DNA of 27,708 nucleotides, taken from the NCBI GenBank assembly GCA_048938005.1, contig JBHLMQ010000039.1:1-27708 (forward strand), read 5' to 3'. The notes below the pieces were generated by a model. That model was not told where the DNA came from and ran no database searches. It saw only the letters and a program-made list of their open reading frames with translations. The translations under genes and the position numbers were made by a program. Source of the stretch: Promethearchaeota archaeon. GTDB taxonomy: Archaea; Asgardarchaeota; Lokiarchaeia; Sigyniarchaeales; SOKP01. Shown piece by piece: positions 8,345-12,110 of the stretch. Each line of letters opens with the position of its first letter. Within the stretch, counting starts at the first letter, position 1.

Positions 8345-9436
8345 TTATATCCTTCTTTTACGGTATATGTAGACTGCAATTCCAAAAATTAACCCAATAG
8401 AACCTAGTATAATTATTAAGATCCAGTAATTAAATTCAACCATCCAAATTTCTTCGTATAATCTGGATAATCCACCTAATATATTTAATGTTTCAAAGGC
8501 ATAATAAGTAGAAACAATTGAAGATGATTTTTGATCAATCCTTTCAGTAATTTCTATAAATCCTCCATCTTGAAAGTTTTGACGAGCTAATACCCAATTT
8601 ATAGTGGCTCCTCTTTCTAATTCACTATTAGATATTAAAGAAATCGCTTTTACACAGAAATATGTACTACTTAATTGTGCATATTCTGCGATTTGATGAG
8701 GTAAATATCCACCAAAATTATTGGTATCTGCTGTAGTATTGATATAGAGAGATGCAAAGTAAGTTAAAGTCATGTTAATATCAACAAGATCGCTTACATT
8801 ACCTACAAGTTCATATAATATGAGTGTTGTGAAATATGTATCAATTAATGTAGATGTTAGACTTTGATTTCCTCCATATCCACCATCACTATTATTACAA
8901 GATAGAACCCAATTCTTATGAAGTGTAATATTATCTATTGTTTTGTTAATTAAAAAATAAATTTGAATAACATAGTAAGTTGAGCTTATACTTGCTGATG
9001 CTGAACTATTTGAATAAGAAAATCCACCACTTACTTGTTCAGTATCATTAATATATTTATAAATTCTGTTAGTATATTCTGTATCAATCTCATGATCTAA
9101 AATTTTTAGAGATTTCAAAAGATAATATAAATTATACAAGTCTACATTGTCAGTATCAAACATATCTTTTATATTATCTTCTAAATTAGTTCGAAGCGTC
9201 TCAATATCATTTGGATTTTTTCCGTAAGCATCCAAGATATCCAATGCGTAGGCTGTTGCTTCAATAGAAACACTATTATTGTTAGCATTTGCAAAGCCTT
9301 CACTCCCAAATTCATTACTATAAATAAAACTAGTTAAATATGACTGTCGTGTCTTTGCTAATACAGAGGGAATAAATACACTCGGAATAAGCAATATAAA
9401 TATGATGCTAATAAAATTCCGAATTTTGTGTTTCAA
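8345..9436 (-). CDS. Secreted, membrane-anchored prenyltransferase/squalene-oxidase-repeat (alpha/alpha barrel) glycoprotein
   Basis: N-terminal signal peptide. Repeats of W/Y-x-Q/N-x-DGG-F/Y ... ST(Y)(Y/F) (SGGFS, NSDGGYGG, NFGGY, QDGGF). C-terminal TM helix plus RKRRI, and about 10 N-x-S/T sequons. Confidence 0.8.
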   Translation of the reverse strand: MKHKIRNFISIIFILLIPSVFIPSVLAKTRQSYLTSFIYSNEFGSEGFANANNNSVSIEATAYALDILDAYGKNPNDIETLRTNLEDNIKDMFDTDNVDLYNLYYLLKSLKILDHEIDTEYTNRIYKYINDTEQVSGGFSYSNSSASASISSTYYVIQIYFLINKTIDNITLHKNWVLSCNNSDGGYGGNQSLTSTLIDTYFTTLILYELVGNVSDLVDINMTLTYFASLYINTTADTNNFGGYLPHQIAEYAQLSSTYFCVKAISLISNSELERGATINWVLARQNFQDGGFIEITERIDQKSSSIVSTYYAFETLNILGGLSRLYEEIWMVEFNYWILIIILGSIGLIFGIAVYIYRKRRI

Positions 9437-9592: not shown

Positions 9593-11110
9593 TTAAAGAA
9601 TTTCGCTAATATCCCGATATAATAGTTCTCTATTTGTTTGGAACTGTTCATAAGTAATAAAAAGCTGTTGGAATGAAGGCAAGCTTCCAAGAATAGCTGC
9701 GCCAGTAAATATAGCAAATTGAAGATTATCAGGTACAAAAAATTTGAGAACTTTACTTGCTGATTCCATAAATTCAGAAAATTCTTGAGCAGGTGTTTTT
9801 TTTGTTAATTCTTCTGGTAGATCTGCTGTTTCTAAAGATTCTATAGGCTTGCCACAATAAGGACAAAAAAGTGAATCCATATCAATAATTTCTTTGTTAC
9901 AATGTGGACATTTTTCTTGTTTTTTTTGTTTGATTTCCCCTGGTGCTCCAATTTTAATTTCAGGTAAAAATAATACACCTCCACAGGATGGACATAATTC
10001 TAATCCATTAGTAAGGCGAACAAAAGTTCCACAATGTGGACAAGTATCTTCCTTCTTCTTTGAAATTTCGACGGCCTGGAGTTTTAATAATTCACTTTTA
10101 ACTGCTGAAAGAGGTGCAACTGGTTTAGGAATTGAACCTAATTGTGGAAGAAGTAAATCTAACTCCGACTCAAATCGTTCTTGAAAGCCACTATAAGAAA
10201 GATTTCCTCCAGAAAAAACTACATGAGATAAAAGATTATGCCAATAATGATTATCAATGCTCCTCAAACATGCAATTATTGCTTGTGGTATATTCATGAT
10301 ATTTCCATAACCTAATATCCCAGGATTAAATAGTACCTCTGGAGCTTGATAGAGAATATAAGTTGGAACTTTTATGGTTGAACCATCTGGCATGGGAACC
10401 TTAAACATCTCTCCTGTTTTTGGTGGCTTATTTGGATCTAACACGAAATAACAATTTTTTTCTTTTATGTCTTGAATAATTTCATCTGCAGCACTAGAGG
10501 CAATACTTACACCTTCTCTCATCAAAAGCCCCTTTAAGTTTTGGTTAACGTCAATTCCAGCTAAAGGAAGCTTCTGAATCGCATGTTCGACCATTTTTCC
10601 GTTAATGATTGGTACTATCCAAGTGAGTCCTTCTCCTGACTCGATGACTAATCCTGTTGTCAATCCAACACTAAATAATGAAAGTAAAGGTGTTGGCATC
10701 ATTATTAGACTTCTTACGCGATGTGTCTCAAAAAAAACTCTCGCAATAAACTCCTTAGTCTCTCTATGCATGAATGGAGTTTCACAATAAAATACAGGAT
10801 AATTAGAAAGATTTTCAATTCTAAGTAGTGAATAAAAAATGTAATTTAGGATTTCGTAGTAGCTGTCCCAGTCCATAATTTCTCCTCGGGCTATAGGATG
10901 TTTAATCTTGAGAACGCCACGCATTCGAGATACATCGTTTCCAACATATATAGATCTAGCACTAACATCTACCATTACAGATTTATATTTTTCAGTTCCG
11001 GTAATACAGGGAAATACAAATCTAGGTCCAGGTTCTCCTGCAAAACCGATTTTAACGTATGCCGAGCCGATATCAATTATAATTGGTGTTCCAGGTAAAG
11101 GTAGTGCCAT
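9593..11110 (-). CDS. Actin-related protein (Asgard ARP) with an internal double zinc-ribbon insertion
   Basis: Colinear with actin: IIDIGSAYVKIGFAGEPGPRFVFP (P1 loop), HPIARGEIMDWD, TTGLVIESGEGLTWIVPI (P2 loop), DIKEKNCY, MPDGSTI, APEVLFNP, VVFSGGN and IFTGAAILGSLPSFQQLFIT. Insert carries CPHC, CPSC, CPHC and CPYC. Confidence 0.95.
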   Translation of the reverse strand: MALPLPGTPIIIDIGSAYVKIGFAGEPGPRFVFPCITGTEKYKSVMVDVSARSIYVGNDVSRMRGVLKIKHPIARGEIMDWDSYYEILNYIFYSLLRIENLSNYPVFYCETPFMHRETKEFIARVFFETHRVRSLIMMPTPLLSLFSVGLTTGLVIESGEGLTWIVPIINGKMVEHAIQKLPLAGIDVNQNLKGLLMREGVSIASSAADEIIQDIKEKNCYFVLDPNKPPKTGEMFKVPMPDGSTIKVPTYILYQAPEVLFNPGILGYGNIMNIPQAIIACLRSIDNHYWHNLLSHVVFSGGNLSYSGFQERFESELDLLLPQLGSIPKPVAPLSAVKSELLKLQAVEISKKKEDTCPHCGTFVRLTNGLELCPSCGGVLFLPEIKIGAPGEIKQKKQEKCPHCNKEIIDMDSLFCPYCGKPIESLETADLPEELTKKTPAQEFSEFMESASKVLKFFVPDNLQFAIFTGAAILGSLPSFQQLFITYEQFQTNRELLYRDISEIL

Positions 11111-11212: not shown

Positions 11213-11638
11213 TTATTTTTTCATTAGGTCATAAAGTGTTTGTAAAATCTGGTTACGTAAGACTAAACCAATTAGTTCATTATGTTCATTCACTACAGGT
11301 AATCTTTGAACTTTTTTATCAAACATTATCTCCAATACACTCATTAATGTGTCATCCTTTTTTACAACAAAAGGCTCCGAAGTCATTAAATCCTTAACAG
11401 TTGTATTTGGTGATTCTAAGCTCATTGCAAATCTAGCAAGACGTATATCTCTTTGTGTAATAATGCCAATGAGTTGCCTATTATTACGATCTTTCACAAC
11501 AGGAAGTCCGCCAATATTCTTTCTTACCATTAAAAGTTCTGCGGCACTTATTTTTTCATTAGGAAAGGTAAAAAGTGGATTTTTCATCATGATATTTGAT
11601 ACTTTTATTTCACCAAATTTTTTTAAGCGGTTTTCCAT
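11213..11638 (-). CDS. CBS-pair (Bateman) domain protein
   Basis: Two CBS repeats: KVSNIM..NIGGLPVV..LIGIITQRDI and TVKDLMT..KVQRLPVVN..LIGLV. Confidence 0.93.
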   Translation of the reverse strand: MENRLKKFGEIKVSNIMMKNPLFTFPNEKISAAELLMVRKNIGGLPVVKDRNNRQLIGIITQRDIRLARFAMSLESPNTTVKDLMTSEPFVVKKDDTLMSVLEIMFDKKVQRLPVVNEHNELIGLVLRNQILQTLYDLMKK

Positions 11639-11729: not shown

Positions 11730-12110
11730 TTAGCTAATATTCATTGTTTCTCCAAGCTTCTTTTCAATTTTTTTTATTTCTTTTAAATAATTCTTATAGA
11801 CCTCTAGTAAATGTTGCCCCCATTCATTTAGTTTTACCCATCCACCTCCACCACGACCTCCTTTACCTGTTAATACTACAGGTTTACCAGTTCTTTTCTC
11901 TATTCTCTTTAAAATATTCCAGGCGTATTTATATGAATAATTGCATTCTTTTGCTGCTTGCGTTAATGACCCCGTTTCATTTTTTTCAATATGATAGAGC
12001 AAATTTGCCCAACCAGAACCCAATATACTTTTATTCTCGAATTCTAACCAAAATTTAATACCAAACCTTATTTTAGATTTTAAATCTTCAATTTTGGGTT
12101 CTTTAGACAT
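11730..12110 (-). CDS. ModE N-terminal-type winged-helix transcriptional regulator (no molybdate-binding TOBE domains)
   Basis: ILGSG...LL..I...GSLTQAAKECNYSYKYAWNILKRIE...GKPVV..GKGGRGGGGWVKLNEWG, the ModE/LysR-type HTH signature. Confidence 0.88.
   Translation of the reverse strand: MSKEPKIEDLKSKIRFGIKFWLEFENKSILGSGWANLLYHIEKNETGSLTQAAKECNYSYKYAWNILKRIEKRTGKPVVLTGKGGRGGGGWVKLNEWGQHLLEVYKNYLKEIKKIEKKLGETMNIS

Follow-up and report, generated by a model that had tools for sequence, protein, structure and literature searches.

An actin-related protein family of Lokiarchaeia with zinc ribbons inserted in an actin loop and a conserved toroid protein gene as its neighbour

Eukaryotic actin-related proteins (ARPs) such as Arp3, Arp5 and Arp8 of INO80, and Arp11 are specialised, substoichiometric subunits with the actin fold, in which surface insertions give new contacts, and Arp11 caps the pointed end of the Arp1 filament of dynactin. 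No eukaryotic Arp is known to carry a zinc ribbon. In bacteria, an amphipathic helix or loop ties the actin-fold proteins FtsA and MreB to the membrane. A report on Haloferax volcanii CdpC (HVO_0399), a protein that binds FtsZ1 with its C-terminal ribbon and whose N-terminal ribbon domain helps to bind the membrane, refers to FtsA as an actin-like anchor of FtsZ (bioRxiv 10.64898/2026.07.16.738847). For the Asgard archaea, the work on actin considered here has dealt only with lokiactin, profilins and gelsolins, and ARP-like paralogues figure in the available text of these papers as tree branches and low-level transcripts only (PMC9834061, PMC13716822). A stretch of 27,708 nucleotides from a Promethearchaeota archaeon of the class Lokiarchaeia (contig JBHLMQ010000039.1 of assembly GCA_048938005.1, positions 1 to 27,708; this whole stretch is referred to as the window) was found to encode an ARP with two CPxC zinc ribbons inserted in its actin fold, and it is well supported that this protein belongs to an order-wide, Lokiarchaeia-type family of Asgard ARPs with one or two such ribbons inserted.

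The actin part of the protein matched the Pfam family Actin (PF00022) with an E value of 1.3e-63 (215.5 bits, cut-off 27) in two stretches flanking the insert, the best of which spans aa 9-321. In a phmmer search of the Protein Data Bank (PDB), aa 10-323 were aligned with residues 3-318 of the actin filament chain 8thx and aa 452-492 with residues 319-359 of the same chain, such that the alignment with actin ends at aa 323 and restarts at aa 452/453. As the two blocks abut at residues 318/319 of 8thx, about 128-129 extra residues lie between consecutive residues of actin. The preliminary description of this DNA had proposed colinearity with actin to about aa 323 and its resumption after an insert, and both are borne out by the PDB alignment and the two Pfam stretches; the insert itself, with four CPxC motifs making up two ribbons, is reproduced exactly by translation (Table 1). 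The same description states that Arp3 has a short insertion in this loop; the inserts mentioned in PMC9295785 are those of ARPC1 and not of Arp3.

Each ribbon includes two CxxC knuckles, and the binding of zinc is predicted from these. The search with zinc-ribbon models that had been suggested for the insert returned four families above their curated cut-offs, namely Zn_ribbon_3 (PF13248; 38.6 bits, cut-off 27, E 6.2e-10, aa 400-423), DZR (PF12773; 30.2 bits, cut-off 27.3, aa 357-420), DUF7575 (33.2 bits, cut-off 28.5) and Zn_Ribbon_1 (28.6 bits, cut-off 25). NCBIfam gave sub-threshold matches only, for example to a rubrerythrin-like domain and to crenactin (21.7 bits, cut-off 630), and a query of the ESM Atlas with the insert gave no usable match. 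The earlier wording of Lys/Pro-rich linkers and an acidic tail is roughly right: the tail has a net charge of -5 and three prolines, while linkers 1 and 2 each have a net charge of +2, with three and two prolines, respectively.

The AlphaFold2 (AF2) model, built from an alignment of 84 sequences, had a mean predicted local distance difference test score (pLDDT) of 81.5 and a predicted template modelling score of 0.72. The pLDDT was mostly above 90 in the actin core, 80-94 in the C-terminal actin part, about 67-74 in the ribbons and below 50 in the linker segments 333-351, 382-398, 425-438 and 446-450, and short helices were placed in the insert at 335-345 and 440-451. With this model, Foldseek listed actins first (E about 1e-34, TM-score normalised by target 0.88-0.92) and dynactin Arp1 chains lower. 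As modelled, the ARP keeps the four-subdomain actin fold intact, and flexible tethers carry its two small ribbons; the confident core with its less confident ribbons and linkers fits the actin fold with an interaction module that had been envisaged at the outset.

In the insert, as in CdpC, disordered linkers connect archaeal zinc ribbons of the CPxCG type. CdpC as described in the available text is, however, a stand-alone DUF7093 protein without an actin fold, its partner is FtsZ1 and not actin, and DUF7093 was not among the 25 listed of the 26 Pfam families that match the ARP at E up to 1. CdpC may be regarded as a precedent for archaeal ribbons that link cytoskeleton and membrane, and its likeness to the ARP would be one of function only. 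FtsA and MreB resemble the ARP in that an actin fold is combined with an added element, which in their case ties it to the membrane and envelope proteins, but they belong to other branches of the actin superfamily and their membrane element is not a zinc ribbon. The MreB_Mbl model of Pfam matched some relatives of the ARP weakly and below its cut-off (E 7.8e-06 and 0.00033).

A search of a protein collection with the ARP gave 315 matches, and the best 120, which were listed, all carry Actin together with at least one zinc-ribbon family; these listed matches are 63-99% identical to the query and nearly all of about 505 aa. The eight ribbon cysteines are invariant in 22 of 22 aligned relatives (63-99% identity), as are E443 and F444 of the tail. 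Among representatives at 50% identity, further clusters of the same architecture were detected down to 39% identity, and Actin plus zinc ribbons was found in 8 of the 10 that were scanned. Matches running through the insert were present in 143 of 400 Asgard genomes, all from one order, and the reading frame is open in 142 of them. By families of this order, here f1 to f4, the inserted ARP was found in 128 of 135 genomes of f1, to which the genome of the window belongs, in the single genome of f2, in 10 of 14 of f3 and in all four of f4, and in none of 7 genomes from other families of the class or of 239 from other classes. Outside the order, the best matches are ordinary actins and end at about residue 324-333. 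The f1 and f3 genomes without the inserted ARP are mostly incomplete (61-85%), the exceptions being G147 (100%) and G232 (92%). One copy, in G195, is partial with a TAA inside, and another, in G130, reads X at masked bases.

In a set of 18 order-wide sequences the insertion site is identical throughout, ribbon 1 is always kept and ribbon 2 is kept in 14. Those without ribbon 2 are three f4-type sequences and the protein of locus L017 (the copies concerned are L017:5962-7461 (-), L021:5938-7446 (+), L027:5752-7242 (-) and P0126), and from these sequences the minimal insert seems to be one ribbon. A [DE][FY] motif occurs in the insert tail of all 18. The order-wide relatives have a mean identity to the ARP of the window of 0.79 for the core, compared with 0.58 for the insert. 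The L017 open reading frame (ORF) is identical to a record named 'hypothetical protein [Candidatus Lokiarchaeum ossiferum]', and a relative of 557 aa is recorded as 'zinc ribbon domain-containing protein [Promethearchaeum syntrophicum]'. A 385-aa ARP copy lacking the insert was observed in G196 (contig C37, L053:2815-3972 (-)) beside a normal copy in the same genome; it sits on a long branch within the f1 clade, a position that points to secondary loss of the insert, and a 379-aa ORF resembling a small GTPase adjoins it.

Four actin-family genes were found in the genome of the window, coding for a lokiactin-like protein (442 bits to PF00022), a 373-aa paralogue, the zinc-ribbon ARP and a 398-aa paralogue. 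This agrees with the four actin homologues, three of them termed ARP-like, that are given for L. ossiferum in the available text of its description (PMC9834061). Of five other genomes of the order that were searched, four have lokiactin together with the 373-aa and zinc-ribbon types, and two of these four a fourth paralogue as well, while only lokiactin and the zinc-ribbon ARP turned up in G279, which is 63% complete. The 373-aa and 398-aa paralogues of the genome (L002:1489-2610 (+) and L004:1438-2634 (-)) each fall in a clade of their own; both have lost Gln137, and the 373-aa type has kept both W-loop aromatics. Gelsolin-domain proteins are also encoded in this genome, and lokiactin is 88-96% identical across the order. 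ARPC4 (PF05856) was detected neither in this genome nor in the control genomes, so that its absence carries no weight.

A tree was built from 92 rows and the 377 columns filled in at least half of them, with 22 rows carrying the insert; its representatives are unnamed and include no named Arp sequences. All 22 inserted ARPs and one fragment cluster form a single clade, with a Shimodaira-Hasegawa-like approximate likelihood ratio test (SH-aLRT) value of 99. The lokiactin clade, consisting of six rows from the genome of the window and five others of the order, and the two ARP-like paralogue clades each have a value of 100, and the branching order among the clades was left unresolved by the tree. 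Among the best 150 representatives nothing but its own members falls beside the inserted-ARP clade. Thus the insert defines a clade, as had been anticipated, and the separate clade together with the Pfam match upholds the view that the protein is an actin-family member distinct from lokiactin. In phmmer the zinc-ribbon ARP showed no specific affinity to any Arp: Arp1 scored 207 bits, about the same as actins with 206-214 bits, and the best PDB entry was 'HC1 actin' with 235 bits; the label 'centractin' that JGI gives to a few of its relatives is an automatic name.

The 18 order-wide ARPs were further aligned with the canonical actin P0157 and lokiactin, and actin numbering is used for what follows. 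In common with lokiactin and eukaryotic actin, the ARPs have kept the nucleotide-binding residues: the equivalents of D11, K18, G156, G158, E214, G301 and G302 are found in all 18 and that of K213 in 17, and at D154 there is Glu in 16 and Asp in two. Met44 of the D-loop and P243-D244-G245 are likewise shared and present in all 18. The proteins differ from both actins at Gln137, which is replaced in every case (Ser in 13, Thr in three, Ala in two), at His161, which is kept in one, and in the W-loop, where position 166 is aromatic in one and position 169, the equivalent of Tyr169, in none. They further differ by the insert. Identity of the ARP to the lokiactin of its own genome is 0.33, 0.38, 0.32 and 0.42 in subdomains 1 to 4, respectively, and subdomain 2 is the best-conserved one inside the ARP family (0.67). 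In F-actin, residues 322-325 of subdomain 3 touch residues 243-245 in subdomain 4 of the neighbouring subunit, according to the available text of a structural report (PMC7247010), and it is this loop, a longitudinal filament contact, that is interrupted by the insert. The ARP therefore departs from a strict filament-forming actin at Gln137/His161, in its barbed-face contacts and in its placement outside the lokiactin clade. The loss of Gln137 and of the W-loop aromatics, like the conserved gene for a putative surface protein next to the ARP gene, goes beyond what the preliminary description contained.

This adjacent gene, directly downstream, encodes a protein with a match to Prenyltrans (PF00432) at an E value of 1.6e-21, and NCBIfam gave no match for it. 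It has a signal-like N-terminal helix (2-25), a C-terminal transmembrane helix (337-362), both of them helical in the AF2 model (pLDDT 87.5), a short basic tail and many N-x-S/T sites; the two helices place its toroid domain outside the cell. The best Foldseek matches were the beta subunits of RabGGTase, GGTase-III and FTase (E to 2e-09, TM-score by target at most 0.75). Prenyltransferase beta subunits have Asp, Cys and His as zinc ligands, and since no Cys or His was found among the invariant or nearly invariant columns of an 18-sequence alignment of the toroid protein, it is probably a non-catalytic surface protein. The toroid gene adjoins the ARP gene downstream on the same strand in 133 of the 143 genomes, the median distance between the two being 161 bases. 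The exceptions are one gap of 2254 bases, three cases of split contigs (two with both matches at contig ends) and six without a listed place. As most of the 133 paired genomes are close kin, the independent weight rests on f2 to f4, whose ARPs have only 37-48% identity and whose 15 listed genomes include 13 with the pair. Outside the order, where there is no zinc-ribbon ARP, toroid homologues of weaker similarity are found as well. Six f1 genomes are without both genes, for which one assembly gap suffices, and they were unused as evidence. The toroid protein is possibly a functional partner of the ARP.

Of 12 loci from across the order, 8 have a gene for a ModE-like helix-turn-helix (HTH) protein next to the ARP gene on its upstream side, and 7 have a FolD gene past the toroid gene. 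In the window the HTH and ARP genes are separated by one for a stand-alone CBS-pair protein of 141 aa; a homologue so placed was seen in f1 loci only (L023, L025), and the f4 locus L027 has one elsewhere in the locus. Farther away lies a 908-aa ORF without a Pfam match at E up to 1e-05, which is 43-45% identical in three f1 loci. The intergenic regions are too A+T-rich for promoter or terminator calls.

Table 1 Positions of the zinc-ribbon ARP gene, its parts and other genes in the window
Feature	Position	Strand	Details and evidence
Zinc-ribbon ARP, whole gene	9593..11110	-	505 aa and stop; ORF list, translation, Pfam
N-terminal actin part, aa 1-323; subdomains 1, 2, 4 and most of 3	10142..11110	-	phmmer against PDB, AF2
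Insert of 129 aa, aa 324-452, within the actin 322-325 loop of subdomain 3	9755..10141	-	Translation, alignments
Zinc ribbon 1, CPHC-x12-CPSC, aa 357-376	9983..10042	-	Translation, Cys conservation
Zinc ribbon 2, CPHC-x11-CPYC, aa 401-419	9854..9910	-	Translation, Zn_ribbon_3 match
Acidic tail of insert, aa 420-452, with acidic-aromatic E-F motif on predicted helix aa 440-451	9755..9853	-	
C-terminal actin part, aa 453-505; last strand of subdomain 3 and return to subdomain 1	9596..9754	-	
Toroid protein, prenyltransferase-beta-like, 363 aa, directly downstream of ARP gene	8345..9436	-	PF00432, AF2, Foldseek
ModE-like HTH (winged-helix) gene, 126 aa, upstream of ARP gene	11730..12110	-	TIGR00637 ModE_repress, E 1.1e-17
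Stand-alone CBS-pair protein	11213..11638	-	
ORF of 908 aa	14689..17415	+	

The reading that we prefer, at a probability of roughly 0.4, is that the zinc-ribbon ARP docks on lokiactin and presents its ribbons and tail as adaptors, so that it would cap, anchor or seed filaments instead of elongating them. With the nucleotide-binding residues kept and Gln137 lost, and His161 lost in most members, the actin core would still bind nucleotide with ATP hydrolysis slow or absent, and the protein would be a structural ARP and not a treadmilling subunit. The pointed face has the marks of a filament subunit, as Met44 and the PDG loop are kept and subdomains 2 and 4 are the most lokiactin-like, and it may dock onto the barbed end of lokiactin or onto a lokiactin monomer. 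On the opposite side, the remodelled barbed face would present the tethered ribbons and the acidic-aromatic tail; the loss of the W-loop aromatics and the splitting of the 322-325 loop, taken together with the kept pointed-face elements, favour a role at the filament end over that of an ordinary subunit. The ribbons might be located at the cytoplasmic face of the membrane, to which both the neighbouring surface-protein gene and the double zinc ribbons on membrane proteins of the same genome point. The latter are weak look-alikes of the insert and are situated at the cytoplasmic termini of two membrane proteins. These are encoded at L048:736-1776 (-) and L052:283-1749 (+) on contigs C3 and C18, with N- or C-terminal ribbons; one has a multipass region with the look of a CPBP protease by eye, and the other has a Gly/Arg-rich N-terminus.

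Several observations weigh against this assignment. The differences in identity between the subdomains are small (0.32-0.42), and the barbed-face cleft is largely kept, the equivalent of Y143 being Phe or Tyr in 15 of the 18 ARPs, with L346 retained in 17 and F352 in 14; judged from the alignment, these residues would leave room for the addition of a subunit at the barbed face or for self-polymerisation. The D-loop varies between the ARP subfamilies while lokiactin is near-constant, which fits a variable partner or self-interaction better. The cytoplasmic tail of the toroid protein is only about 5-8 residues long, its toroid domain being extracellular, and the occurrence of FolD in 7 of the 12 loci suggests that the gene order may be plain synteny. 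Finally, in the main text of a study of L. ossiferum motility, a profilin, five gelsolins and an ARF GTPase are given as enriched in the co-immunoprecipitation with Lokiactin and no ARP is named (PMC13716822).

Some of these points would be accounted for if the ARP assembled with itself into a second polymer, with the ribbons on its surface tying the filament to the membrane and organising the toroid protein in the manner of MreB, and this is thought unlikely but is the foremost of the other explanations. The D-loop is the best-conserved region in the family and its variation between subfamilies fits co-evolution with the family's own cleft, of which the Y143 and L346 equivalents are kept order-wide as given above and in which F146, T151, L474, L477 and F480 are invariant or nearly so in the close family. 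The ARP core is also conserved like its housekeeping neighbours (in locus L025 its identity is 66%, and that of FolD and a GTPase 63-67%), and the gene adjoining it in 133 genomes would supply the surface protein to be organised. A polymer of this type would, however, be formed with its longitudinal 322-325 contact loop interrupted and without an aromatic residue at position 169 in any of the 18, and it would lack Gln137 in all of them, while filament-forming actins turn over by hydrolysis. In the available text on L. ossiferum, only Lokiactin filaments are assigned, and the Lokiactin transcript is severalfold above those of the other actin homologues (PMC9834061).

The tail following the ribbons offers another possibility, namely that it recruits a lokiactin monomer to the barbed face of the same ARP, like the V-C-A region of WASP-family proteins, with one chain thereby starting a filament at its pointed end. 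In the subfamily to which the L. ossiferum and P. syntrophicum proteins belong (tails P0272-P0306, P0312, P0127 and P0128; for example L018:5761-7419 (-) and L019:5950-7623 (+)), an L-[LIM]-K-K-[TA]-like motif occurs at a fixed offset in 32 of 38 tails and in its strict form in 25, compared with 0.9 and 0.1, respectively, in shuffled tails. LKKT/V is the signature of WH2 and beta-thymosin motifs, and V-C-A is the order of elements in WASP-family proteins; in the ARP tails the motif is followed by a predicted amphipathic stretch and then by an acidic-aromatic E-S-E-Y stretch. The hydrophobic spacing before the motif is nevertheless unlike that of the usual WH2 helix, none of four tail segments matched WH2 or Thymosin in Pfam at E up to 10, and the counts come from related sequences and so reflect conservation, not independent recurrence. 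The subfamily of the window itself keeps the motif in 10 of 121 tails, two of them in the strict form, and the loss of the W-loop aromatics disfavours a normal contact at the barbed face. For the tail, ARPC1 offers a precedent, as there a helix with a conserved Phe enters a barbed-end groove (PMC9295785). On balance a built-in nucleator is held to be very unlikely.

It is less probable still that the protein has no part in a cytoskeleton and is a nucleotide-dependent scaffold in the manner of the nuclear ARPs, its ribbons binding nucleic acid (DNA or RNA) or a factor of transcription or chromatin. Many archaeal proteins that bind nucleic acids have zinc ribbons, the linkers of the insert are basic, and the ModE-like HTH gene found upstream in the same orientation in 8 of the 12 loci is the sole pointer to a nucleic-acid role. 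Set against this, the gene neighbourhood holds no helicase or HSA-type partner, the ribbons match the generic DZR and Zn_ribbon families and their look-alikes in the same genome are on membrane proteins, and the D-loop and the PDG loop, which are relevant only to contacts between actins, are strongly conserved. An artefact, whether a chimeric assembly or an actin gene wrongly fused to a zinc-ribbon gene in gene calling, is ruled out by the recurrence of the architecture at the same site in 143 of the 400 genomes, several of which are single contigs and in which all copies but those of G195 and G130 are open, by its presence in all of the best 120 of 315 relatives in the protein collection and by the invariance of the eight cysteines, so that the insert is a conserved one.

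Full-text searches of the literature yielded no account of an actin or ARP bearing zinc ribbons; supplementary tables may list the protein, for example the asCOG and eukaryotic signature protein (ESP) tables from Asgard genomics or, in PMC13716822, Supplementary Table 2 (co-immunoprecipitation, proteome). Automatic annotation already labels relatives of the ARP as 'zinc ribbon domain-containing protein' or 'actin-related protein'. In keeping with the early impression of an uncharacterised architecture, this ARP family with its newly found inserted module and conserved neighbour gene appears to be undescribed.

The family provides a conserved ARP with a mutable add-on, consisting of eight cysteines and a defined tail, and the conserved pairing with the toroid protein is a second, independent handle on it. 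As members occur in two cultured Lokiarchaeia, L. ossiferum and P. syntrophicum, its role is directly testable with cultures, antibodies and lokiactin assays. It is conceivable, and judged quite unlikely, that the features combine in a single-chain filament-end device at the membrane, with its pointed or barbed face engaging lokiactin and its ribbons keeping it at the cytoplasmic side of the membrane, beside a co-encoded surface glycoprotein. The tail, which in the subfamily of the cultured species has the K-K-T motif, an amphipathic helix and an acidic-aromatic stretch, would handle a lokiactin monomer much as a V-C-A region of WASP serves the Arp2/3 complex. Such a device, if true, would represent an archaeal precursor of, or analogue to, nucleation by Arps and the link between adhesion and cytoskeleton, and part of the machinery that drives the protrusions and crawling of Asgard archaea. 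If, more simply, the ARP works at the ends of filaments or as a tether between filament and membrane, it would bear on the pre-eukaryotic origin of regulated actin networks and perhaps on the origin of Arp-type regulation.

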